NCBI GenBank assembly: GCA_042218235.1
Contig: JBDGRI010000023.1
Span: 1-54,058, forward strand
Direction: 5' to 3'
DNA length: 54,058 nucleotides
Source: Candidatus Pacearchaeota archaeon
GTDB taxonomy: Archaea; Nanobdellota; Nanobdellia; Pacearchaeales; GW2011-AR1
Shown here: piece by piece, positions 4,031 through 54,058 of the stretch
How positions within the stretch are numbered: the first letter of the stretch is position 1
How the letters are laid out: the number at the start of each line of letters is the position of its first letter
The notes under the pieces: generated by a model
Database searches by the model: none
What the model was told of the DNA's origin: nothing
What the model saw: the letters and a program-made list of their open reading frames with translations, nothing else
Made by a program: the position numbers and the translations under genes

Positions 4031-4138
4031 TATATTAGTTTCTTGTAAAAGGGCTTTTTAAACTTTTCGTTATGTTGTAACTTTTTGGTTATTACAATCT
4101 TCAGATAGATTTATTAAAGAAATTTTTTTGTTTGGGTT

Positions 4139-4456: not shown

Positions 4457-4593
4457 TTATCCCTTAAGTTTTTTATACTATGATTTTTTCTGAATAACTT
4501 TTTAAAACCGATTTTACTATTTTGAGTTGTCGTTCTTGTAGGGTCGGCGGTCGGAAAAAGCCGATCTTAGGAAAAAACGGCGTTTTTTCATAG

Positions 4594-4688
4594 GCGGGGA
4601 TGTCGGCAAAAAATCGGAAGATTTTTAGCTATTGCGTATTTTTTCGCCATACTCAAAAATCCACAATAGAGTGTAAACACTCCATTAA
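4594..4688 (+). repeat. stable-RNA-associated mini-element, copy A (13-nt tRNA-Leu 5' copy + conserved element + spacer)
   Basis: GCGGGGATGTCGG (4594..4606) matches 12 of 13 nt of tRNA-Leu positions 1-13. It is followed by CAAAAAATCGGAAGATTTTTAGCTATTGCGTATTTTTTCGCCATACTCAAAAATCCACAATAGAG (4607..4671). Near-identical blocks occur at 43145.. and 8613... Confidence 0.7.
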
Positions 4689-4772
4689 GCGGGGATGCCG
4701 GAGTGGTCAAACGGGCAAGACTTAAGATCTTGTGGCTTAGTGCCTTCGGGGGTTCGAATCCTCCTCCCCGCA
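4689..4772 (+). tRNA. tRNA-Leu (anticodon UAA)
   Basis: 84-nt cloverleaf folded by eye. Acceptor stem is GCGGGGA/UCCCCGC and the anticodon stem is CAAGA/UCUUG with loop CUUAAGA. It has a long variable arm (GGCUUAGUGCC), T-arm GGGGG-UUCGAAU-CCUCC and discriminator A. Confidence 0.9.
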
Positions 4773-5017
4773 TTGATTCGAAACTTTGGGTTTATGGAAT
4801 TTTGCAAATTCAGGCAAATGTTTCCATGCGCAACAGAGTGAGCACTTTCAAAACGGAAGTTTTGATTTATTTTGGATTTTGGAGCGAAGCGAGAAAATAC
4901 GAGATAGTTAGAGGCTTTAGGTCTCTTACCGAATACTCTCCCCGTATCGATAAATTATGCATTAGTGCCTTAATCAGATTTGTTAAGAAATGGGTTAAAG
5001 GCTCCTTTTATATCGTA

Positions 5018-6075: not shown

Positions 6076-6867
6076 ATGAAATCAAGAAAAATTTGGTGGT
6101 TGATTGCAATCTTGGCTTTAGTTCTTTTTGTGTTAAATTATTCTTATTTGGACTCGCAACTTAAAGATTATCTGAACGATCGTAAAAGAGTTAATGTCAC
6201 TCGTGTTATTGACGGTGATACAATTGAGTTAAACGGAAGCAAAGACGTTAGGCTTTTAGGGGTAGATACTCCTGAGAGAGGTGAAAAGTTTTATGATGAA
6301 GCTTCGCGCTTTTTGGAAAATCGCATTGAGGGAAAGAAAGTTACTTTAGAGTTTGGGCCCGAAAAGAAAGGTTCTTATGGGAGGATTTTGGCTTATGTTA
6401 AGTTTAAAGGAGAAAACATTAATTTAGATTTAGTTAGAGAGGGTTACGCTAACCCTTATTTCCCTGGAGGAAGAGGGATGCATTATGGAGATTTTGTAAA
6501 GGCCTGGAAAAGTTGTTTGAGTAAAGGAGTTAGGCTTTGTGAAAAGTCCGATGATGTTTGTTCCAAATGCATTGAATTGGCAAAGTTTGACCACGAAAAT
6601 GAAAGGGTTGTTTTTAAGAACACTTGTTCCAAAACTTGTTCTTTGAATGGTTGGAGAATAGAAGATGAAGGCGGCAAGAAATTTGTTTTTGAAAATTTGG
6701 TTTTGGATTCCGGTGAGAAAGTTGCGGTTGTTTCGGGCAATGGAACTTATTCAGGTTCCGGAAAGTTGGTAGAATGGAGAGAGCATGATTATGTTTGGAC
6801 TTATACAGGAGATACTTTGTTTTTACGGGACGCCGAAGGCGATTTGGTTTTGTGGGAGAGTTATTGA
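6076..6867 (+). CDS. membrane-anchored staphylococcal-nuclease-like thermonuclease with a C-terminal lamin-tail-like domain
   Basis: N-terminal TM segment, then an SNase core (VIDGDTIEL...RLLGVDTPE...YGRILAYV) and a Cys-rich/LTD-like tail (GWRIEDEGGKKFVF). Confidence 0.7.
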   Translation: MKSRKIWWLIAILALVLFVLNYSYLDSQLKDYLNDRKRVNVTRVIDGDTIELNGSKDVRLLGVDTPERGEKFYDEASRFLENRIEGKKVTLEFGPEKKGSYGRILAYVKFKGENINLDLVREGYANPYFPGGRGMHYGDFVKAWKSCLSKGVRLCEKSDDVCSKCIELAKFDHENERVVFKNTCSKTCSLNGWRIEDEGGKKFVFENLVLDSGEKVAVVSGNGTYSGSGKLVEWREHDYVWTYTGDTLFLRDAEGDLVLWESY

Positions 6868-7190
6868 ATAAGGTTTATTCCTTCTTTTGAAGCTTTTTGG
6901 ACTATTCCTATCCTTTTTTTCAGTTTCTCAAATTCTTTTGGAGTATAACAAATTATGTCTAAATCTTGTTTTTTGTCCCACATTCCGTATGCTTTAGAAA
7001 TTCTTTCTCTGAAGCCCATTCCTTCAAATTTTTCAGAGATTACTATTATGTCAAAATCGCTGTTTTTCAAGTTGTCTTTTCTTGCCCTGCTTCCGAATAA
7101 GAGTATTTTTTCTGGTGAAAATTTTCTTTTTAGGAAATTTAGGTGGCTTTTTAGTTCTTTTATTGTTTCTTTACTTGGTTTTCTATCCAT
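6861..7190 (-). CDS. minimal nucleotidyltransferase (MNT-type antitoxin-like)
   Basis: 109 aa with the LFGSRARKDNLKNSDFDIIVIS motif (GSxxxG...DxD). It overlaps the upstream HEPN gene by 31 nt. Confidence 0.7.
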   Translation of the reverse strand: MDRKPSKETIKELKSHLNFLKRKFSPEKILLFGSRARKDNLKNSDFDIIVISEKFEGMGFRERISKAYGMWDKKQDLDIICYTPKEFEKLKKRIGIVQKASKEGINLIQ

Positions 7191-7546
7191 TTTAATAGTT
7201 CCTCGAGTTCATTTATATATTTTTCAACTTTGTCTTTGTGGTATAGTTTGTAGGGAGTTTCTCCTGCAGCATCCGGATAGCGAGTTGTTATGAATTCAGG
7301 AGTTAAGTCGCTTAGAATTTGAAAGTATTTTTTTGGAACTTTAGTTTCCTTTGCAAGATAAATTAGAGAGTGTGTTTGTCCAGGAGATTCCGCTCTTTTT
7401 TCTATGTATAGTGCCTTTAATGCTTTTTCTGCGGATTGTTGGCATAAAAAAGCCGATACGTAATATTCTTTTATCTTGATATTCTTTTTCGCAGCTTCAA
7501 TATCCTTTTTAGATTGCTCAAGAAATATTTTTGATTCTTCCCTCAT
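7160..7546 (-). CDS. HEPN domain protein (toxin-like partner of MNT)
   Basis: 128-aa helical protein with a C-terminal TTRYPD motif typical of HEPN. It forms an operon with the MNT gene. Confidence 0.65.
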   Translation of the reverse strand: MREESKIFLEQSKKDIEAAKKNIKIKEYYVSAFLCQQSAEKALKALYIEKRAESPGQTHSLIYLAKETKVPKKYFQILSDLTPEFITTRYPDAAGETPYKLYHKDKVEKYINELEELLKWIENQVKKQ

Positions 7547-8234: not shown

Positions 8235-8269
8235 CAAAAAGTCTTTTAAGCGGTATTTGTTCTCTTATG

Positions 8270-8533
8270 CTGTAGGCCAGACCGGCGTGCTAGCCCTACG
8301 CTGTCCGCAAATGGGCTATATGGCGGGTCGCAAAGGGAGGCGTGATAAGTCTGCTAGGAAACCCCTTTCCTCTTGTCGACGTCCTGTCTGCCTTGATGCC
8401 ACTTATGTGAACCGGGTCAGACCTTGATCGGAGCAGCCCTAAGCATATGTTGGCATGTTTGGCAGGTCGCAGGAAAGAGAGAGGTTTGGGACCACTTCCT
8501 GGCAGACTTTGAGCAACTCCCCTGGCCTGCTTT
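8270..8533 (+). ncRNA. ffs: signal recognition particle RNA (archaeal 7S/SRP RNA)
   Basis: GC-rich island in AT-rich DNA. A terminal helix pairs GUAGGCCAG (8272..8280) with CUGGCCUGC (8522..8530). A helix-5 segment pairs AAGUCUGCUAGG with CCUGGCAGACUU. Alu-domain loops are complementary (UAGCCC/GGGCUA). A helix-8-like motif reads GGGUCAGACC...GGAGCAGCCC. A TATA-like CTTTTAAG lies about 24 nt upstream. End coordinates are approximate. Confidence 0.75.
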
Positions 8534-8612
8534 GATTTTCCGCTTCTGTATTTGGAAAAGCGAAGTAGTAGGCTGAAATTTTAATTTCTGGCTCTACGCT
8601 TTGGAGTTGCTG

Positions 8613-8744
8613 ACAAAAAATCGAAGATTTTTAGCTAATGCGCATTTTTTCATTTCATTCAGAAAATCACATAGGCCTGGAAATATCATGAGTATTTCAG
8701 CCCATTTCGCCTTTTTTCGTTAAACTCAAAAAGTCAAAATGGAG
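8613..8744 (+). repeat. stable-RNA-associated mini-element, copy C (downstream of SRP RNA)
   Basis: ACAAAAAATCGAAGATTTTTAGCTAATGCGCATTTTTTC... is shared with copies A and B. It contains two tandem half-units, ending ...AAAATCACATAG and ...AAAAGTCAAAATGGAG. Confidence 0.65.
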
Positions 8745-8835
8745 CAACTCCCCTGGCCTACTTCGTGGGAGGTTGCTACAATGTGACGCACCTTCTGAAT
8801 TAGGATTTCTCATAGAGCAACTCCCCTGGGCCTAC
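8742..8835 (+). repeat. two extra copies of the SRP RNA 3' end
   Basis: GAGCAACTCCCCTGGCCT occurs at 8511..8530 (in the gene) and 8742..8761, with a one-base-insertion variant (CTGGGCCT) at 8815..8835. The first and third copies also share the following CTTTGATTTT. Confidence 0.7.
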
Positions 8836-8881
8836 TTTGATTTTTGGTTAGAATTTTAAAGCATGTTTAGTTTTTCTTAAC

Positions 8882-12701: not shown

Positions 12702-13529
12702 TTATTCTTTTAGATTTTTAACGGCCTCATTGAAAATTTTTTCTAGATCTCTTCTTAAAATGTTTTTCCAGTTGACATTCTTTTTGTCTTTTAGGTATTC
12801 TGAGACTAAGTGATAACCTAGGGTATAACCTGTCCAAAAAGGGAATTCTTTATCCTGGTTGAAGAAGATTTTTATGTGGTATTTGAATCCTTTTTTCTCT
12901 AAGTAGGGACTTACTTTTCTGAGGTATTCTTTTGTTTTGCTTTTTGGAAAAACTTTTGTCCAGGGGTTTCGTTTCTTTCGGAAAACGTGTTCTTTGAATT
13001 TTTCGGCTAACCCCTCCGCTATAATGTTTCCTTTTACCTTGAGCGGATTTTTAGAAAACATCGAGTAATTTTTTGATAATGCATGAGCTAATTCATGAGC
13101 TACTATGTCTTTTAATGCCTTTTTCCAGTTTTTGGCTATTGTTGGCTGGATGATTATGTGTTTTCGGTGTGGTGTTAGGCCCATAACCCCTTCCATGTAG
13201 TCTTTTACGAACTTGTTTTTTTCGGGAATTATATAGACATAGATTTTTTCTTTTCCTATCACATTTGAGAGGTCTTTTAATGCTTCTGAAACGATTTTTT
13301 CCGCTTCATCGGGTTCAGGCTTTTCGAGAATTGTTTTTCTTTTTCCTTTAGAGAACCAATGATTCATAAAGGTCTTTAGATATTCCCTTTTCTTGAATCC
13401 AAAATATCCTTCTTCCGTTTTTGGAATTTCTCCTATAATGTATTCTTTAACTTTGTCTATGTCTTTTGAAGGACAATCTAGGAAGTTGTAGATTTCCGCT
13501 TTAGGGTTTTTTAGAGTTTTTTGTCTCAT
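12702..13529 (-). CDS. HExxH zinc-metalloprotease-like protein (DUF2268-like), paralog of 28025..28849
   Basis: 275 aa with the HELAH motif. Its C-terminal WTGYTLGYHLVSEYLK matches WTGYSIGYHLIKEYLK in the paralog. Confidence 0.55.
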   Translation of the reverse strand: MRQKTLKNPKAEIYNFLDCPSKDIDKVKEYIIGEIPKTEEGYFGFKKREYLKTFMNHWFSKGKRKTILEKPEPDEAEKIVSEALKDLSNVIGKEKIYVYIIPEKNKFVKDYMEGVMGLTPHRKHIIIQPTIAKNWKKALKDIVAHELAHALSKNYSMFSKNPLKVKGNIIAEGLAEKFKEHVFRKKRNPWTKVFPKSKTKEYLRKVSPYLEKKGFKYHIKIFFNQDKEFPFWTGYTLGYHLVSEYLKDKKNVNWKNILRRDLEKIFNEAVKNLKE

Positions 13530-21170: not shown

Positions 21171-22142
21171 CTAATCCCCATGACTATAACTAATTTTTTC
21201 CAAAGCGGGTTTAGTTGGATCGTGTTTATTGTAGAATTGCTTTCGCTCTTCTATCTTTGTAACGTATGGGTCATCAGGATCTCCATTCGCACTACTGCCT
21301 TGGTTGTATCTTTCAATTGCCTCGTCCCAGGTTCCATGCCTTCTCTTTAGAGTCGAGAGGAATTTTCCAGCAGCTTTAATGCTTTCTTCTGGGTCGAACC
21401 TTTCATCCATTTCAGATAATTTTTTGTAGTCGTGGTTGTATTCCTCTACAAGATTTGACAGTCTCTTTCCATGAGCCGAGTCTTTTCCAGTACTATACGA
21501 ATCTCCTCTTACATCTAAGTCATATGCCCTACCAGTTCCAGGTTGGAATTGACCGAGGCCTACGCCCCCATCGGGACTTACAGCCGTTACTCTTCCACCT
21601 GACTCTTGCATAATTATCGCTTTAAGTGTTCCCGTAGGAATATTGTACTTATTCTCTACCTTATCAAGTTGATCGTCCCACCTATAAGTCCTTTGGAATT
21701 TGCCCAGTTGGGTCCAAGCCGGCATTGTTACCTTTATTTCTTTATTCTCATTGGGTCTTAATAATTCATCAACAATAAAGTTTTCTTGGTAAGGAGTGAC
21801 TTGTTCTATATTGTTCTTATCTTTACTAAATTCTGAATTTTCTGCAGTTGAACTTGTGCCGATATATTGAGGAGCAAACGCACCCCAAAGAGGAATTAAT
21901 ATCTGCAAAGCGGTCTTCGTGGGAATCATAAATTTTTTTAGAGGGTCCAATCCTGGAATTTTCCAAGATTTATTGCTAGAGGATTCATTTTGAATTTTTC
22001 TTTTGGAACCTAGATAAACTTGATTTTTTAGATTCGTGTGTTTCAACATACGCCTAGCTATTTTAGAACCGTAAAGGAAATCCTGGAGCATATTTTTAGA
22101 AGATTCTCCTTCACCTCTTAATTTCCCGACGAGATTTTTCAT
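21171..22142 (-). CDS. SLT-domain lytic transglycosylase-like protein
   Basis: 323 aa with one TM segment. Motifs are IMQESGG (catalytic Glu-Ser), GLGQFQPGT and RYNQG. Confidence 0.7.
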   Translation of the reverse strand: MKNLVGKLRGEGESSKNMLQDFLYGSKIARRMLKHTNLKNQVYLGSKRKIQNESSSNKSWKIPGLDPLKKFMIPTKTALQILIPLWGAFAPQYIGTSSTAENSEFSKDKNNIEQVTPYQENFIVDELLRPNENKEIKVTMPAWTQLGKFQRTYRWDDQLDKVENKYNIPTGTLKAIIMQESGGRVTAVSPDGGVGLGQFQPGTGRAYDLDVRGDSYSTGKDSAHGKRLSNLVEEYNHDYKKLSEMDERFDPEESIKAAGKFLSTLKRRHGTWDEAIERYNQGSSANGDPDDPYVTKIEERKQFYNKHDPTKPALEKISYSHGD

Positions 22143-22213: not shown

Positions 22214-22723
22214 CTATCTTCTTATTATTTCGTGAGAATCAAGATATCTGGGTTGTGTTTGTTCAGGTTCTATTTGTTCCGAAATTGTTATTGAAGCATG
22301 CATTTTGTCTTTTTCGGGCTTGCCCCAGTATTCAGAGATTCTAATGGCCTGGGGGTCGCCCGCCATTAATTCAGCGTTTTCGTCTGTTAAGTTCTTGGAT
22401 TGATAGCTTATTCTTTTTCCGTCGGCATTGTAGTCTTGAGATTTGATTATGTTAGTTCGGCTTCCATCAAAGTAATAGAAAGGTGCCTCTTCTGAATCTT
22501 TAGGATTTCCAAAATTTTCTTTCAACATGTTTTCAAGTTGGTTTAATCCTTCATCTTCAAGGTTCTTTATTACCCATTCATATTTTATTTGAGATATGTC
22601 CGCTGGTTCTTTTTTTAGAAAGGCTTCATGGTTTTTCCCGTTTAGATTGAATCCTATTAAAGGATTATAGTTGTCTCCTTCACCTTCTTCAAATCCTGGT
22701 AGGTGGTTGTATTCGTTGTTCAT
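22214..22723 (-). CDS. hypothetical protein
   Basis: 169 aa. Its start overlaps the upstream SLT gene by 4 nt. Confidence 0.5.
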   Translation of the reverse strand: MNNEYNHLPGFEEGEGDNYNPLIGFNLNGKNHEAFLKKEPADISQIKYEWVIKNLEDEGLNQLENMLKENFGNPKDSEEAPFYYFDGSRTNIIKSQDYNADGKRISYQSKNLTDENAELMAGDPQAIRISEYWGKPEKDKMHASITISEQIEPEQTQPRYLDSHEIIRR

Positions 22724-23682
22724 TTTATGTTTTCTTTATAGTATTCTCTGAATTTTTGGAATCTTCTCACATGAGATGTTTCTGAAGGTTTTTCTGCAGG
22801 AGAACCCAAATTATAGGCTGAAACTGCTTCCTTCAGTCCCCCGTATCTGTCAATAAGGGTTTCCATATATTTTGCAGCCGCATCGGAGCTTTTTACAACA
22901 TGGAATCTTTCATCAACTTTTGCAAGGTCTTTGTATTGATATCCATGTTCTTCGCATATCTTTCTCAGTGATTTTGCATGGTTAGTATCTGCCCCCATAG
23001 CATTAGATTCTCCTCTAACGTCTAGACCATATGCTCTTGCTGTTCCTGGCTGAAATTGATATAGTCCAGCACCCCCATCTCCGGGAGTGTTTAACTGTAC
23101 AGGATTTCCATGAGATTCTGTCATGGCTAAAGGTCCTAGAGTATGTCTCGGTATGTCGTACTCTCTCTCAAATTTCTGGTAAATATCTTTAAATCTTCTT
23201 GCTCTCTGAAATTTCCCTTCCATTGAAAGTCTAGAGGAGTTTATTCCTTCGAAGGTCTTTTCTTTTCCTTTTTCTTTGTCAGGATTTGGCCTTTCCTTTT
23301 TTTCAGAAATTTTTTCAGAAGGATTGAAATCATTATAGATATTTGAAACTTCATTTGAGAGTCCTGATGCTCCAGTTATAATTGTTGCTCCCAAAAGTGC
23401 TGTTGATATAGCATTTGTGGCTGCGGGCCTCCATTTTTCTGAAGCTTTATTTCTTAGCCCATTGATTTTTTCTGAAGCCTTTGAGACCAGGCCTTTTTGG
23501 TTTGCCGCGTATATTCCAATTGAGCTGGCACCGAAGGTTAATAGCTGTAAGGGTTCTGAGAAATCTTGAGAGGCTACATATTCAGATGATCCGAATGCTC
23601 CATTAACCGCTCCTATATTTATTGCAAATTTTGCCGCTCCTTCTGTTACTTTGTCTAAAAGACTCTTTCCTGCTTTTGCCAT
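22720..23682 (-). CDS. SLT-domain lytic transglycosylase-like protein (paralog)
   Basis: 320 aa with AMTESHGN, GLYQFQPGTARAYGLDVRG and AYNLG motifs. Confidence 0.7.
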   Translation of the reverse strand: MAKAGKSLLDKVTEGAAKFAINIGAVNGAFGSSEYVASQDFSEPLQLLTFGASSIGIYAANQKGLVSKASEKINGLRNKASEKWRPAATNAISTALLGATIITGASGLSNEVSNIYNDFNPSEKISEKKERPNPDKEKGKEKTFEGINSSRLSMEGKFQRARRFKDIYQKFEREYDIPRHTLGPLAMTESHGNPVQLNTPGDGGAGLYQFQPGTARAYGLDVRGESNAMGADTNHAKSLRKICEEHGYQYKDLAKVDERFHVVKSSDAAAKYMETLIDRYGGLKEAVSAYNLGSPAEKPSETSHVRRFQKFREYYKENIK

Positions 23683-23748
23683 ACCAAAGCAAGACTTAGG
23701 CTATTTTTAAACTTTTCGTTTTGTTGTCACTTTTTAATTTATACAGAA

Positions 23749-27731: not shown

Positions 27732-28041
27732 AAGAGTTCAAAGAGGGGAGAAAGTTATCGAGGTTAGGCTTTATGACGAGCAAAGGCAGAAAGTTGAAAT
27801 TGGGGACGAAATTGAAATTCTTAATTATCATAATCGGGAAGAGAGTGTTTTGGTTGAGGTTATCGGCCTTTCGAGGTTTAGGAATTTTTATGATTTGTAT
27901 TCTGCTTTTGACCCGAGTAAGTTTGGGCATACCGAGGGAACTAAGCCTGAAGAACAAGCAGAAAATGACAGGCAGCATTATTCAAGAGAAGATGAAGAAA
28001 AGTATGGAGTTTTAGGAATTCATATTAGGTTGAAGGGTTAG
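27694..28041 (+). CDS. ASCH domain protein
   Basis: 115 aa with PF..V..GEKVIEVRLYDEQRQKVEIGDEIEI, typical of ASCH. Confidence 0.6.
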   Translation: MKHQMKLVKDPFRRVQRGEKVIEVRLYDEQRQKVEIGDEIEILNYHNREESVLVEVIGLSRFRNFYDLYSAFDPSKFGHTEGTKPEEQAENDRQHYSREDEEKYGVLGIHIRLKG

Positions 28042-28849
28042 TTATTAGGATTTCTTTAAGGATTTCTTTTGGATCCTTTTTGATAATCTCATCCCATGTT
28101 AAATCTACTTTCTTCAAATATTCTTTTATTAGATGATATCCAATTGAATACCCTGTCCATAAAGGATATTTCCCAGTTCCATAGAAAACTTTCCCATGTT
28201 CTTCGAAATCTTCACTGTCTAATATTTCCTTTAGTTCTTCAAAATATTTTTGTGCACTTTCTTTGTTTATTGCATTCCCTAAATGACTTTTTTCTCCAGT
28301 AATATGTTCTACGAAGTTTTCTGCGATTCCATCAAAAATAATTTGTTCTCCTATCGACATTTCGTTTATGTTATAGAAAGGGGATAGGGCATGAGTCGCT
28401 TCATGTATTAAAGATTTTTTCATTGATTCTTCCCAGTTTTCTGAAGGGAACATGTGTAAAATTATGGTTTTTTTGAAAGTGCAAAATCCTGAAATGCCAT
28501 CAAGTTTGTCTTTTACAAATTTGGAAGTAGTCGGGAATATAAATATATTTAGGCTTTCCATCGGTATAGAATCTTTTATCTTTCTCAAAGTTTTTCTTAC
28601 AGAATCCGATATTTTTGTTTCCATATTGCCTTCATTTGGAAACTGTTTTTCCGCATCGTTGTTAACAAAATTTAGATGAAATTCCAATGCTTCTTTTTCT
28701 TTCCAACCTGCAAACCCGGAATCTGTATTTGGGCAGTCCTTAGATGCTTCTTTAGCAAATTTCTTGCTTGGTAGACGGTTAGATTTGTCCAAGAATAGAT
28801 AGAGTTCTGCTAAGGTATTTTCGTCATTCTTGATTATTTCTTTTTTCAT
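28025..28849 (-). CDS. HExxH zinc-metalloprotease-like protein (DUF2268-like), last gene of the YcaO operon
   Basis: 274 aa with HEATH and a WTGYSIGYHL tail. Its start overlaps the SagB-like gene by 4 nt. Confidence 0.55.
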   Translation of the reverse strand: MKKEIIKNDENTLAELYLFLDKSNRLPSKKFAKEASKDCPNTDSGFAGWKEKEALEFHLNFVNNDAEKQFPNEGNMETKISDSVRKTLRKIKDSIPMESLNIFIFPTTSKFVKDKLDGISGFCTFKKTIILHMFPSENWEESMKKSLIHEATHALSPFYNINEMSIGEQIIFDGIAENFVEHITGEKSHLGNAINKESAQKYFEELKEILDSEDFEEHGKVFYGTGKYPLWTGYSIGYHLIKEYLKKVDLTWDEIIKKDPKEILKEILITNPST

Positions 28850-29556
28850 TGTTTTTTTCCTAAACCAATTACATATAAAGGAATTTCGTTTTCAGTCAAG
28901 TCAAGTATTTCTGAGACTTTGTCGTTTACATATCCTCCAATTGGGCAGGTCCCTATGTTTTCTCTCTCAGAAGAAAGGATTATATTTTGGCCCATATGTC
29001 CGGCTTCAATTAAAGAAAAGGGATACGCTTTTGCACCATATTTGACTTCTGATCGAGGTATTGCGGATGTTAAAACAATGGCTGCTGCGGGGTTTTCTAA
29101 AGCAGAGATTATTGATTCTTTTTCCTTATCTAGATTCTCTTCTAATAGTGTTTCAAGAGTGTTGTCTAATATATTGTAATGGTATGCTCCTTTTTCGATA
29201 CCTTCAACATTGAAATTGGTCACATATGTCTCTATGGGAAATCTTGCTCCTGCAGAAGGATACGACCTTCTCTCGGGATCTCTATTGTAATCGTTTATCC
29301 TACAAGAATGCAGTATATTTGAAAGCTGTTGGTAACTCATAGGGTCTTTTGAGAACGATCTTATCGATTCTCTTTGGGAAGTTAGTTCTTCAAATTTGTC
29401 CAAATAATTACGAGGCTTTAATTTCCGGGAGGGTAACCTAGGATATGTCTTATGAAATACTTTTACGTATTCTATGGGTGCTTCTTCATTACTGTCGATC
29501 TCCAACTTTTCTTTAAGCTTTGTTTTTTTATAGAAGTTTTTCGTATCTTTTCTCAT
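28846..29556 (-). CDS. SagB-type (nitroreductase-fold) dehydrogenase
   Basis: 236 aa with RESIRSF, RSYPSAGARFPIETYV, AYHYN, IEAGHMGQN and PIGGY. This pattern is typical of azoline oxidases. Confidence 0.7.
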   Translation of the reverse strand: MRKDTKNFYKKTKLKEKLEIDSNEEAPIEYVKVFHKTYPRLPSRKLKPRNYLDKFEELTSQRESIRSFSKDPMSYQQLSNILHSCRINDYNRDPERRSYPSAGARFPIETYVTNFNVEGIEKGAYHYNILDNTLETLLEENLDKEKESIISALENPAAAIVLTSAIPRSEVKYGAKAYPFSLIEAGHMGQNIILSSERENIGTCPIGGYVNDKVSEILDLTENEIPLYVIGLGKKQ

Positions 29557-29557
29557 T

Positions 29558-30802
29558 TTAAGTCATAGGGTGAGGTTTTAGGTTTTTTTCTTTTATTTCT
29601 CCGTAGTGTTTGCTATACAGATATTTTGCATTTTCGTCTAAATATAATGGATGTAGTTCGGGTATGATTACTTTTTTTACCTCTATCCCTTCCTTTTCCA
29701 TTTCAGGGAGAGAAATGTCTGCTTCGAAAACATGGAACCCTCTCTTGTCTAAACTATTTACAATTTCATCTATTCCAATCGGTTTTTTATTTAATTTTTT
29801 ATAGTTTATTTTTTTGGTTGATCCTAGCCAAAAAGGCAAATCGTTTTTTCTTTCGTTGCCGAACCAATAAAAGAACCTATTATCTAAAGAGTTTATTTCA
29901 TTTTCTTTTGGCAGCCTTTCCGGACATTCTATCTCTTTGAGTATTCTGCCTGTTCTTCTGCATTGTATAGATTCCATGATTGATCTTTCTATCGCGTCTT
30001 TATAGTTGAGATCGGCATCTGAGCCTACATTTATTGCTTGCCCCATATTTGATTTGTCGACTGTTACGGTTAATGCTGTAGGAATCTCCAAATCAGAGGT
30101 TGCATCAAACACGTAAGGTTCAAGCTGATATCTTTCCAAGTATTCTTTTGTTTTTTCTATATTTTTAGGAAGGTTCTCTATTAAAGGCAACTCTTTTGCT
30201 TGTAGGTACGCCCCTATGCATGAATCTCTTTCAATAGATTCAAGTAGTCCTTCTTTTCTTGCCCTTCCAGTTCCTTTGAAACCTAATGCTGTACCCGTAG
30301 TTATTCTTTCAAGTCTTATTGGAAATTCTTTGTTAAATTCAGGATTAATATAAATCAATTGTGCCGGCAGGTTTACTTCTTCTCCAGTAGACAAATTCTT
30401 TGCTGGATACCACCGATAAATTTCGTTATCGGCTTTATTTTCAAACTCCTCAATATTTATTTGTTCACTTGAATAGTTCCTGAATAAAGAAGGCCTAACA
30501 TCTTTTCCCGGGTTAAACTTACGCGGTTTGCTAAGGTACTCTTTTTGAGGATTTTCTATGGCCAATCTTTCAAGATATTCTCCATAGGCTTTAACCTTTG
30601 CGCTTTGAGAGTTCTTAGAAATACCTTGTCCATGGACTTCATTTGTTCTGTACTTTTCTTTATCGTTTTCTCCAGAAAAAACTAGGTATTGAGGATATTT
30701 TGGTTCGTCGGTAATTATTATTGTTTCCTCAGGATTAGTCCCTAATCCGGTTTTTTCAAACTTTCTTAAAGCTTCATTTAATCTCATAGGGCACCCTATC
30801 AC
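29558..30802 (-). CDS. YcaO-domain cyclodehydratase
   Basis: 414 aa with GQGISKNSQSAKVKAYGEYLERL, TTGTALGF, ESIERDS, and D.TSDLEIPT. The likely true start is ATG 30787, preceded by the SD GGAGGTGA. Confidence 0.75.
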   Translation of the reverse strand: MIGCPMRLNEALRKFEKTGLGTNPEETIIITDEPKYPQYLVFSGENDKEKYRTNEVHGQGISKNSQSAKVKAYGEYLERLAIENPQKEYLSKPRKFNPGKDVRPSLFRNYSSEQINIEEFENKADNEIYRWYPAKNLSTGEEVNLPAQLIYINPEFNKEFPIRLERITTGTALGFKGTGRARKEGLLESIERDSCIGAYLQAKELPLIENLPKNIEKTKEYLERYQLEPYVFDATSDLEIPTALTVTVDKSNMGQAINVGSDADLNYKDAIERSIMESIQCRRTGRILKEIECPERLPKENEINSLDNRFFYWFGNERKNDLPFWLGSTKKINYKKLNKKPIGIDEIVNSLDKRGFHVFEADISLPEMEKEGIEVKKVIIPELHPLYLDENAKYLYSKHYGEIKEKNLKPHPMT

Positions 30803-31089
30803 CTCCAGGGTTCTTCAGTTAAATCAGAAATCTCTTTTCTACGTCTTCTATTTGGATTTGAGTTAGATGCACTATGGCCACTATTTCCTATAGGTTGGTA
30901 GATCCCTGGTCTTGATCCGCTTTTGCTTTGAGACCCGCTATTACTTTGGCTTTGGGAACTTGATTGACAAGGTCCAGAAGAACCTACTAAAGGGTTATAT
31001 AGGTTAGAACGATTAGTGAGATTATACGGCGCGTTTTCAACTACGCCCTCCATTTCAAGGACTTTTTCCCTATATTTTTCCGCCTCCAT
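30799..31089 (-). CDS. Ser/Gly/Gln-rich small protein, candidate RiPP precursor
   Basis: 96 aa with the central tract GSSGPCQSSSQSQSNSGSQSKSGS. Its stop overlaps the YcaO ORF, and it is the first gene after the TATA box. Confidence 0.5.
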   Translation of the reverse strand: MEAEKYREKVLEMEGVVENAPYNLTNRSNLYNPLVGSSGPCQSSSQSQSNSGSQSKSGSRPGIYQPIGNSGHSASNSNPNRRRRKEISDLTEEPWR

Positions 31090-42971: not shown

Positions 42972-43131
42972 TCTATGGAAACGCTGTTTCCCTAAGATCG
43001 TCTTTCCTCACATAAGATGACCGGGAATTGTTTAATTTACATGGGTACTGTGAAAGGGAATTTTAAATATTTGTTGATATACAGAAATTACATAACATTT
43101 TTAAGCAAAAGTTATTCCTTATCTTTATGGT

Positions 43132-43285
43132 GCCCAGATGGCAGGCAAAAAATCAAAAAGATTTTTAGCTATTGCGTATTTTTTCGCAAGGCTCAAAAAT
43201 CCACAATAGAGCTTGAAACAAGTTTCACTCGCATTGCGCTTTTCCAAAAAAGAAGTGGAAAATCACAATAGAGCGGTTACATTAT
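43132..43285 (+). repeat. stable-RNA-associated mini-element, copy B (13-nt tRNA-Ser 5' copy + element + spacer)
   Basis: GCCCAGATGGCAG (43132..43144) is identical to tRNA-Ser positions 1-13. It is followed by GCAAAAAATCAAAAAGATTTTTAGCTATTGCGTATTTTTTCGCAAGGCTCAAAAATCCACAATAGAG and a second half-unit ending AAAATCACAATAGAG (43273). Confidence 0.7.
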
Positions 43286-43367
43286 GCCCAGATGGCAGAG
43301 CGGTTAATGCAGCGGATTGCTAATCCGTGCCCTTCGGGGCTCGCAGGTTCGAATCCTGCTCTGGGCG
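43286..43367 (+). tRNA. tRNA-Ser (anticodon GCU)
   Basis: 82-nt cloverleaf. Acceptor stem is GCCCAGA/UCUGGGC and the anticodon stem is GCGGA/UCCGU with loop UUGCUAA. It has a long variable arm (GCCCUUCGGGGC) and T-arm GCAGG-UUCGAAU-CCUGC. Confidence 0.9.
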
Positions 43368-46432: not shown

Positions 46433-46738
46433 ATGAGTGATTTTGTTAGGGCTGACAGATTGGAAAATATAGAGAATTGCTCCGGATATAAGCTAAAATT
46501 GAGACTTTTGGACATTCGAGCTAAAACTAAGAAGCTACATAGGAGAAACTATGATATGCATAAAGAGTTGAAAGACTTGTGGAAGCAAAAAATAGACATA
46601 AAAGGAAGATATAAAGACGGGATTGAAAATAACTCATATAAAGACAAAAGGGCTACAAATAGGCATTTTGGAGATTTTAAGAGTAGGAACAAGAGCAGAC
46701 ATATTGATTTTAGTGAGGGTAGCGCTAGGTTGACATGA
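46433..46738 (+). CDS. hypothetical basic protein
   Basis: 101-aa Lys/Arg-rich ORF. Confidence 0.35.
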   Translation: MSDFVRADRLENIENCSGYKLKLRLLDIRAKTKKLHRRNYDMHKELKDLWKQKIDIKGRYKDGIENNSYKDKRATNRHFGDFKSRNKSRHIDFSEGSARLT

Positions 46739-46838
46739 GGTATCCCAAAAATTCGAAAATTCAATTGTTTCTTTAGAGAAAATAAAATGCCAAAACTTTT
46801 TTAATAGAAAATTAACAAACGCTATTTAGTAATCTAAA

Positions 46839-47129
46839 ATGGTAGAAGAAAAGTCTGGACCGGAGAAGCTTAAGAAAAAGTTAAAGGAAGCAGAGAAAAC
46901 TGGAGATGGCTTAGAGGAAACTCTTGAAGAATGTATTATGAATTCTGAGAGAGTGCAGGATCTTTGGAGCTTGGGTTTTGAGACAGGTAATTTTGGCTAT
47001 GGTAGGCTAATAACTTATGAAACGAAAAGCGACACCAAATATACATGGATCCAGGGGGAAAACGGAGATTACGACCAGATAAAATATTTTGGTCTAAAGC
47101 CAATTGGAGGTTACAGGAGCGATATATGA
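46839..47129 (+). CDS. hypothetical protein
   Basis: 96-aa ORF. Confidence 0.4.
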   Translation: MVEEKSGPEKLKKKLKEAEKTGDGLEETLEECIMNSERVQDLWSLGFETGNFGYGRLITYETKSDTKYTWIQGENGDYDQIKYFGLKPIGGYRSDI

Positions 47130-47141
47130 TAAAAACAATTA

Positions 47142-47216
47142 TAGCGGGAAGAGGATTTGAACCTCTGACCTCCGGGTTATGGGCCCGACGAGCACTCCAG
47201 ACTGCTCCATCCCGCT
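47142..47216 (-). tRNA. initiator tRNA-Met (anticodon CAU), archaeal type
   Basis: The reverse complement folds as a 75-nt cloverleaf. It has an A1:U72 pair, three consecutive G:C pairs closing the anticodon stem (GGG/CCC), loop CCCAUAA and T-arm AGAGG-UUCAAAU-CCUCU. A TATA-like TAATTAGAAAA lies about 27 nt upstream. Confidence 0.85.
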
Positions 47217-53666: not shown

Positions 53667-53749
53667 TTTGTCTTTAAATTTGTTTATCTTGTTATTACTT
53701 GAAAATGATTATTTATAAATGTTTTGGTAATGTTGTGTTTTTTTGGTGG

Positions 53750-54058
53750 TTACAAAGAATTTAACAAGTCATCATATTTTTCGTAGGCGCCTCTTAGTTG
53801 ATCGTTTATGAAGTTCAAGTAGTTTTGTTTTGGCTTTCCTCCTCTGATGCTTTGCATGGTTTTTGCATGTTCAAGGATTTCTTTTGCTTCCGGGATTTGA
53901 TATACTTTTATTTCTGAATTATTGGCATTGTATTGGAGGTTCTTTACAATTGAATCATAGGCTCTTGACTCTTCTGCAGCATCATCGAAAAAATCTTTCA
54001 GGTCTGAAAAATAGATACTCCCTTCCAAATATTCTTCCCAGAGTCCATTTATTTCGTC
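53750..54058 (-). CDS. hypothetical protein, 5'-partial (runs off the window)
   Basis: The reading frame stays open upstream of the track start (reads DEINGLWEEYLEGSIYF...) to the window edge. Confidence 0.4.
   Translation of the reverse strand, partial: DEINGLWEEYLEGSIYFSDLKDFFDDAAEESRAYDSIVKNLQYNANNSEIKVYQIPEAKEILEHAKTMQSIRGGKPKQNYLNFINDQLRGAYEKYDDLLNSL

Follow-up and report, generated by a model that had tools for sequence, protein, structure and literature searches.

Blocks flanked by duplicated stable-RNA gene ends in a DPANN archaeon: a candidate family of mobile insertions

Some elements of compact genomes insert at, or immediately next to, the start of tRNA genes, a 'safe haven' strategy exemplified by yeast Ty3 (at tRNA transcription starts) and by the TRE elements of Dictyostelium. 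These are retrotransposons guided by TFIIIB/TFIIIC, and they generate a duplication of 5 bp or of variable length. The archaeal sequence family described here resembles them in its position-specific targeting, but there is no homology and no sign of reverse transcription.

Among the closest archaeal systems are integrative elements located in the 5'-distal part of a tRNA gene, such as the Caldiarchaeum tRNA-Thr fragment with its 1.8-kb element (PMC3293823) and CalSub-E1 (PMC6563490). As in the block described below, the old upstream region retains an orphan 5' fragment while the insert restores the tRNA; in both, the direct repeat is short, the orientation is fixed and inverted repeats are absent. 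The block differs in that the insert is only 82-140 nt long and includes no recombinase, in that a near-identical copy is found at two tRNA genes, each with its own 13-mer, and in that 3' ends and the SRP RNA gene also harbour members of the family.

Casposons (family 2, Aciduliprofundum boonei) generate a true target-site duplication of 14-15 bp which overlaps the tRNA 3' end by only 5 bp (PMC5137440). Here, the duplications that overlap a tRNA 3' end are 11 nt (tRNA-Met of a relative) and 23 nt (tRNA-Leu) long, and those at 5' ends 13-14 nt. Like the block family, casposons are archaeal, have a single orientation and carry an HNH nuclease gene (PMC5137440), but the terminal inverted repeats, the Cas1 and PolB genes and the fixed duplication length of casposons were not found for the block family, and casposons are not known at 5' ends, where the block family is found. 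Near-identical promoter segments preceding unrelated genes, as in the case of the block, have been described in prokaryotes as putative mobile promoters or promoter reuse (PMC3575422); that work does not appear to mention flanking duplications of the start of the downstream gene or of targeting to RNA-gene boundaries. The author of an earlier note on this DNA knew of no described archaeal element with such behaviour. This was too strong in view of PMC3293823, PMC6563490 and PMC5137440.

Duplicated tRNA 5' ends and the block between them

The window (the whole stretch of DNA analysed, 54,058 nt) represents ordinary chromosomal sequence from a DPANN archaeon (Nanoarchaeota: Pacearchaeota/Woesearchaeota group). 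It encodes, for example, IleRS, ArgRS, SMC, RNase HII, a photolyase and TrmB regulators, and the top outside matches of its ribose-phosphate pyrophosphokinase, named Nanoarchaeota or Pacearchaeota, show just 61-63% identity. The stable-RNA genes are as follows.

4689..4772, plus strand: tRNA-Leu(TAA), intact (56.8 bits)
8270..8532, plus strand: archaeal SRP RNA gene
43286..43367, plus strand: tRNA-Ser(GCT), intact (61.5 bits); G1 is placed at 43286 according to Rfam and one base earlier by ARAGORN
47142..47216, minus strand: tRNA-Met

The 13-nt start of tRNA-Leu (GCGGGGATGCCGG) is copied 95 nt upstream with one mismatch, and the same layout recurs at tRNA-Ser, where GCCCAGATGGCAG is found at 43132-43144 and, exactly, again at 43286-43298, an offset of 154 nt. 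Both arrangements agree with the earlier note. The features of the two sites are listed here.

4594..4606, plus strand: orphan copy of tRNA-Leu positions 1-13, GCGGGGATGTCGG, with T for C at position 10
4607..4688, plus strand: block at the tRNA-Leu 5' end (Leu-5'), 82 nt, left end CAAAAAATC
4609-4626, plus strand: hairpin of the Leu-5' block
4618-4629, plus strand: BRE/TATA box AAGATTTTTAGC of the Leu-5' block
4639-4644, plus strand: T6 run of the Leu-5' block
4652-4671, plus strand: L module of the Leu-5' block, CTCAAAAATCCACAATAGAG
4669-4682, plus strand: small hairpin of the Leu-5' block
4682-4688, plus strand: right end of the Leu-5' block, CCATTAA
43131..43144, plus strand: orphan copy of tRNA-Ser positions -1 to 13, exact, the T at -1 being common to both copies
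43145..43284, plus strand: block at the tRNA-Ser 5' end (Ser-5'), 140-141 nt (to 43285), right end CATTAT
43202-43212 and 43264-43274: 11-nt repeat CACAATAGAGC within the Ser-5' block, enclosing an inverted copy of a hairpin module (H) that follows the SRP RNA gene

At both sites the repeats directly abut the two ends of the block. When compared with shuffled sequences, the duplications have p ~0.003 (tRNA-Leu) and p <0.001 (tRNA-Ser). An upstream copy of the 5' 13-mer was found for none of 15 tRNAs in related Nanoarchaeota loci and for none of 18 in the other loci scanned (mostly bacterial). In the window, tRNA-Met carries neither block nor duplication, as had been noted previously.

The Leu-5' and Ser-5' blocks share a 54-nt core which is 94% identical and includes exact stretches of 28 and 20 nt. 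Within the window these stretches occur only at these two 5' sites, with 0 expected by chance. The Ser-5' block contains the P and L modules as in Leu-5', followed by extra sequence that is bounded by the 11-nt repeat. The perfect hairpin described in the note (AAAAATC-GGAA-GATTTTT) is borne out: it folds at -5.8 kcal/mol as DNA, with z = -4.4 against shuffles.

Upstream of the tRNA-Leu orphan, between it and the decayed upstream region, there is also a near-perfect 19-nt palindrome (GAAAAAACGGCGTTTTTTC, 4571-4589), and a Logan contig from the same sample (L001) terminates within it, at 4582. The native region upstream of tRNA-Leu was considered as a possible older copy of the block, but this was dropped since the similarity is without significance.

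Promoter motifs at the stable-RNA genes

A 12-nt BRE/TATA matrix (consensus AAGTTTTATAAG) was learned de novo from the tRNA upstream regions of relatives; a score of 8 or more corresponds to the top 0.08% of window positions. In 12 of the 15 tRNAs of relatives the motif ends 21-29 nt before +1, and the tRNAs of this clade are therefore nearly leaderless. Apart from the box within the block, two motifs of the window are of importance.

8239-8250, plus strand: SRP RNA promoter motif, score 10.5, 22 nt before the SRP RNA
43094..43105, plus strand: native-type BRE/TATA AACATTTTTAAG, score 9.4, ending 26 nt before the tRNA-Ser orphan

Since the second of these stands at the relatives' spacing from the tRNA-Ser orphan, the orphan appears to mark the ancestral start, from which the insert has displaced the gene. 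No native promoter is recognisable upstream of the tRNA-Leu orphan (score -3.1). This loss, together with the mismatch in the orphan, fits an older event at tRNA-Leu.

Neither gene has a motif scoring 8 or more at the relatives' spacing from its real +1. The box AAGATTTTTAGC in the block, which had been proposed as a match to the BRE/TATA consensus, does match it (score 9.2), and this leaves it as the sole promoter candidate for both genes. It begins 12 nt past the orphan at both tRNA-Leu and tRNA-Ser and lies 59 nt and 116 nt, respectively, from the gene. Judged from sequence, it is likely to be the present-day promoter of tRNA-Leu and tRNA-Ser. Transcription would then be predicted to start near 4651 and 43191, giving leaders of ~38 nt (tRNA-Leu) and ~96 nt (tRNA-Ser), which are presumably removed by RNase P. 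The best promoter motif of tRNA-Met is located 44 nt upstream, so that this organism probably makes leaders and trims 5' ends as a matter of course. In addition, T5/T6 runs occur just inside the block and would be expected to halt transcription from the old promoter. Thus, of the proposal that the element supplies a new promoter, the promoter-like box and the separation of tRNA-Ser from its native-type promoter hold, while use of the box remains a prediction. Upstream of ORF starts from a mechanical listing the matrix is weakly enriched (7 observed, 2.9 expected), a result which we do not rely on.

Further copies at RNA 3' ends and in relatives

Repeat finding and an nhmmer profile identified at least five copies of the block in the 54-kb window, compared with the two seen previously. 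Each of the five lies within ~300 nt of one of three of the four stable-RNA genes. Those not yet described are found at the 3' ends of tRNA-Leu and of the SRP RNA.

4755..4777, plus strand: first copy of the tRNA-Leu 3' end (last 18 nt of the gene) with 5 nt of trailer
4791..4929, minus strand: diverged inverted block (Leu-3'), core 4869-4912, nhmmer E = 1.4e-5
4791-4797, minus strand: right-end motif of the Leu-3' block, CCATAAA
4930..4951, plus strand: degenerate orphan of the tRNA-Leu 3' end and trailer, 19/23 positions, p <0.001 (shuffles)
8511..8539, plus strand: SRP RNA 3' end and trailer, first copy of a 30-nt duplication
8533..8562, plus strand: hairpin module H, after the SRP RNA
8613..8677, plus strand: block SRPa, with left end (A)CAAAAAATC, hairpin and AAGATTTTTAGC
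8678..8741, plus strand: block SRPb, diverged, in tandem with SRPa
8742-8763, plus strand: second copy of the SRP RNA 3' end, directly after SRPb
8815..8844, plus strand: third copy of the SRP RNA 3' end and trailer, 28/30, closing the 275-nt insert 8540-8814

The two 3'-end copies enclose the Leu-3' block, which meets the orphan with its left end at 4929. Positions 4652-4668 of the Leu-5' block and 4873-4889 of the inverted Leu-3' copy are inverted repeats of each other over a long range, with 15 of 17 pairs. In the predicted fold of a read-through RNA this pairing encloses the entire tRNA-Leu in the manner of a processing stem; hand inspection of the fold showed no bulge-helix-bulge. A cassette model, in which a tRNA-Leu carried between inverted blocks replaced the resident gene, was dropped because tRNA-Ser has a 5' event only.

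The region downstream of the SRP RNA is more complex. Within the 275-nt insert are SRPa and SRPb, together with a terminator-like hairpin and pieces of the SRP 3' end in inverted orientation. The insert is bounded by the 30-nt duplication, but its internal geometry differs from that of the tRNA-end inserts, and this mosaic of inverted pieces and tandem blocks is not reducible to a single clean insertion. The inverted copy of module H in the Ser-5' block (27/30) is located at 43237-43265. Antisense matches to the SRP 3' end (8604-8612 and 8767-8777) can pair with its second and third copies to form two hairpins, the first of which contains the tandem promoter blocks (window 8511-8850).

Five junctions with mutually unrelated flanks share one left terminus of the block, (G/A)CAAAAAATC and then the hairpin. 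At four of these the flank is a tRNA-end fragment (tRNA-Leu 1-13 and tRNA-Ser 1-13 in the sense orientation, the tRNA-Leu 3' end and the tRNA-Met 3' end of a relative in the antisense orientation). At the fifth (SRPa) the flank matches the SRP 3' region, in antisense, over only 9 nt. The left hairpin, which overlaps the BRE/TATA box, is significant in four copies of the block. Right ends are CCATTAA, CATTAT and CCATAAA, with ACCA(TA) in a relative. There are no terminal inverted repeats such as a MITE or other DDE-transposon derivative would have, the left end (CAAAAAATCGG...) having no match to the reverse complement of the right end (TTAATGGAG...), and no Rfam family matched the block.

In all four cases where polarity can be resolved, the left end of the block touches the orphan and the right end is directed toward the intact gene. 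Each of the four tRNA-end insertions leaves the gene intact and copies its terminal 11-23 nt as an orphan on the far side. Each direct repeat is a stretch of the target gene up to the gene boundary, and the gene is restored. Their length varies from 11 to 30 nt (12-14 at Leu-5' and Ser-5', and 11, 23 and 30 at the others), so that the fixed 13-nt duplication first proposed does not apply generally. Specificity for 5' ends must also be abandoned, as other insertions are found at the 3' ends of tRNA-Leu, the SRP RNA and the tRNA-Met of a relative. What does extend to the additional copies is the association with duplicated RNA-gene ends: the copies at the tRNA-Leu 3' end and at the relative's tRNA-Met 3' end both lie beside one, and the SRP insert is bounded by one. 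This outcome favours the note's reading over that of a conserved promoter and nothing more.

Relatives were found, as short Logan contigs, by means of protein-cluster look-ups. Exact look-ups of the genes flanking tRNA-Ser gave no contig (prs could be traced only by way of L091, a near-identical member of its cluster), and a concatenated-protein search for orthologous flanks gave no match. Exact-pattern scans for the block yielded nothing in the genome contig collection, one match, by chance, in metagenomes and, in three viral scans, only chance matches in coding regions. A peptide search with the spurious ORFs read through the block returned nothing. Two relatives carry copies of the block (contigs L094 and L092). 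The target site of the first of these is empty in the window.

47142..47152, minus strand: final 11 nt of tRNA-Met, which read TAGCGGGAAGA on the plus strand

L094 (SRR18572991) is 91.5% identical over 634 nt to window 46520-47152 and is collinear with it through these last 11 nt of tRNA-Met. Directly past the 11-mer a block follows, beginning precisely at its left end (nhmmer E = 6e-8), and L094 includes no tRNA-Met. A partial, convergent gene for an HNH endonuclease (L094 721-1047, minus strand; Pfam HNH_3, 2e-8) has its 3' end ~10 nt past the right end of the block. This is the sole gene found next to a block, in a partial element that is seen no further than the HNH gene; the fragment has no match in the protein collection, and tblastn gave no homologue in the window. 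A second contig, L095 (SRR18572990), shares with the window an intact tRNA-Met and RNase HII, but its 21-nt 3' flank is unrelated to that of the window. Read together, these two short unlinked contigs from two sister samples apparently give the order flank, 11-mer, block ... HNH ..., then 11-mer with tRNA-Met. The site is uninterrupted in the window and in L093, from the window's own sample. An occupied site, pieced together from two unlinked contigs, as opposed to an empty one is the signature that would be expected of a recent insertion, and a block in a relative where the window has none is as predicted for a mobile element. Dispersed copies, here five in the window and two in relatives, whose presence varies between strains are also a property of MITEs and other DDE-transposon derivatives.

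The second relative, L092 (SRR18572992, 81% identity), starts inside a block at the orthologous site downstream of the SRP RNA, where the window has 140 extra nt. This indicates that the SRP-side insertion is old and still changing.

In a Woesearchaeota MAG (locus L006, 11066-11172) the 21-nt 3' end of tRNA-Thr(CGT), TTCAAATCTCTCTTGAGGCTT, is repeated exactly around a 61-nt insert located just upstream of a tRNA-Leu promoter; scars of this type therefore exist elsewhere in the clade.

Explanations of the insertions and other features of the window

We consider it fairly probable that these sequences are a family of mobile insertions which target the boundaries of stable-RNA genes, the block being either one end of the element or a short non-autonomous form. 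Mobility is indicated by the shared termini, the gene-specific duplications and the occupied as opposed to empty site. Counting against the explanation are the lack of terminal inverted repeats, the lack of a transposase, integrase, reverse transcriptase or Cas1 among 68 ORFs compared with Pfam, the variable repeat length, the unrecognisable native promoter at tRNA-Leu, the mosaic downstream of the SRP RNA and the scans of public collections, which yielded no additional copies. Insertions, presumably driven by an enzyme, would land at tRNA 5' ends, at tRNA 3' ends and at the SRP RNA 3' end. At tRNA-Leu and tRNA-Ser the insert would fall between the ancestral promoter and the +1 of the gene, and the two blocks there would be short forms that happened to bring a working promoter. 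The original reading, of an element which generates a target-site duplication, agrees with this as far as the defined ends, the recurrence and the gene-specific duplications are concerned, but such duplications are not distinguishable from the att-type repeats of an integrase-borne element.

A more specific proposal, which we advance only tentatively, is that of a new archaeal transposable element recognising the first or last nucleotides of stable-RNA units and making a staggered cut over the terminal 11-30 nt, so that the repeats would be a true target-site duplication. It would insert in one orientation, would keep genes hit at the 5' end expressed by means of its portable BRE/TATA, and would exist in HNH-carrying and 80-150-nt non-autonomous forms. 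The near-identical block at tRNA-Leu and tRNA-Ser with pure gene-specific repeats, the many targets and the tiny inserts would all favour a true target-site duplication. Repeat lengths of 11-30 nt, on the other hand, are not what a single fixed-stagger transposase would give. They are accommodated if the repeats are att-type scars, left by plasmids or viruses whose tyrosine integrases recombined with the 5'- or 3'-distal part of RNA genes and carried the gene end (with a promoter at 5' sites), and which were later mostly deleted with only the att-proximal block kept. This history would explain not only the variable length but also repeats that end at the gene boundary, the fixed orientation, the lack of inverted repeats and the choice of tRNA and SRP RNA as targets. 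Archaeal att sites of 8-26 bp and, rarely, integration in the 5'-distal part of a tRNA are on record (PMC6563490), as is the order tRNA 5' fragment, 1.8-kb element, intact tRNA in Caldiarchaeum (PMC3293823); tRNA fragments are a known by-product of integration (PMC9897764), and the occupied site in L094 bears at least one gene. We nevertheless judge it unlikely. At least five att specificities (Leu-5', Ser-5', Leu-3', SRP-3' and Met-3') would be needed on elements that share a block 94% identical between tRNA-Leu and tRNA-Ser, and deletion would have had to stop at identical end points at these two genes, the promoter lying 12 nt past the orphan in both. A Leu-type element integrating at tRNA-Ser should leave hybrid repeats, yet both tRNA-Ser copies are pure tRNA-Ser. 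Moreover, Pfam searches with 68 ORFs of the window revealed no integrase, and no transposase, reverse transcriptase or Cas1 either, although many of these ORFs have no match; PolB was not found in the window.

The lack of a transposase would also be understandable if there were no dedicated element and the inserts were templated patches, copied from other promoter or terminator regions by break repair or replication template switching at highly transcribed RNA genes (for example, at R-loops or at the boundaries of transcription units). The inserts are indeed mosaics of a few modules, both direct and inverted: the SRP terminator hairpin is copied inverted into the tRNA-Ser leader, and the SRP 3' end is present in direct and inverted copies. 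Repeat lengths are variable, and the 3' duplications reach 5-8 nt into the trailer, approximately to the end of the transcript. However, patching would not be expected to give the same left terminus at five junctions with a recurrent right-end motif, a consistent orientation, or the same breakpoints (+1 and 13/14) at two different tRNAs, and the gene-carrying copy of the relative begins at the same terminus. This explanation appears decidedly improbable to us. There is very little probability that the arrangement is an RNA-processing device, with the orphan as a 5' exon and the block as an intron or leader removed at a bulge-helix-bulge, as in the disrupted and split tRNA genes of archaea. DPANN archaea are known for unusual tRNA gene structures, and predicted folds of read-through RNA allow pairing between the orphan and the 3' acceptor strand. 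The orphan merely competes for that strand, however; no bulge-helix-bulge was seen by hand inspection of these folds, and an intron or split tRNA was rejected because the required 4-nt helix would have to form from two copies of the same positions, for which a hand check of all registers found no self-complementary one in either tRNA. The T5/T6 runs in the block should stop archaeal RNA polymerase, splicing would be unnecessary given the intact tRNA downstream, and the orphans are decaying (1/13 mismatch at Leu-5', 4/23 differences at Leu-3'). Finally, as the DNA is a metagenome contig, similarity by chance and faulty assembly must be taken into account, but we regard either as barely conceivable: the shuffle p-values are ~0.003 or lower, independent Logan contigs from the window's sample match it at 99.8-99.9% identity as far as the inserts, assembler k-mers are longer than the repeats (11-30 nt) and related copies occur in other samples.

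If the transposable-element reading is true, the family would be a functional archaeal counterpart of the Ty3- and TRE-type elements that target tRNA genes. On the mobile-insertion reading, essential tRNA genes would have been cut from near-leaderless promoters, re-driven by a promoter of the element and made dependent on removal of a long 5' leader. This would be a concrete case in which a selfish element has rewired the expression of stable RNAs in a DPANN archaeon with a reduced genome. The insertions also bear on how archaeal tRNA genes become fragmented, as orphan 5' and 3' pieces lie beside intact genes within a short evolutionary distance and one site is still polymorphic between lineages at 91% DNA identity. 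With defined ends, a small size and an empty site at hand, the mechanism is testable.

Several other features of the window were recorded. A YcaO cyclodehydratase gene adjoins a nitroreductase-family gene and a 96-aa ORF (28846-31089), a group that looks like a small azoline-type peptide-modification cluster. A gene pair of the toxin-antitoxin type, encoding an NTP_transf_2 nucleotidyltransferase and a HEPN protein, is located at 6861-7546. Within this one 54-kb stretch of a small genome there are two paralogues of a DUF2268 predicted Zn-protease (12702-13529 and 28025-28849) and two of an SLT-domain transglycosylase (21171-22142 and 22720-23682). A 42-nt repeat (TTTTTAAACTTTTCGTT.TGTTGT.ACTTTTT...) occurs three times (4055-4096, 23704-23745 and 53713-53754), in each case upstream of a minus-strand gene, and may be a common promoter or operator module.
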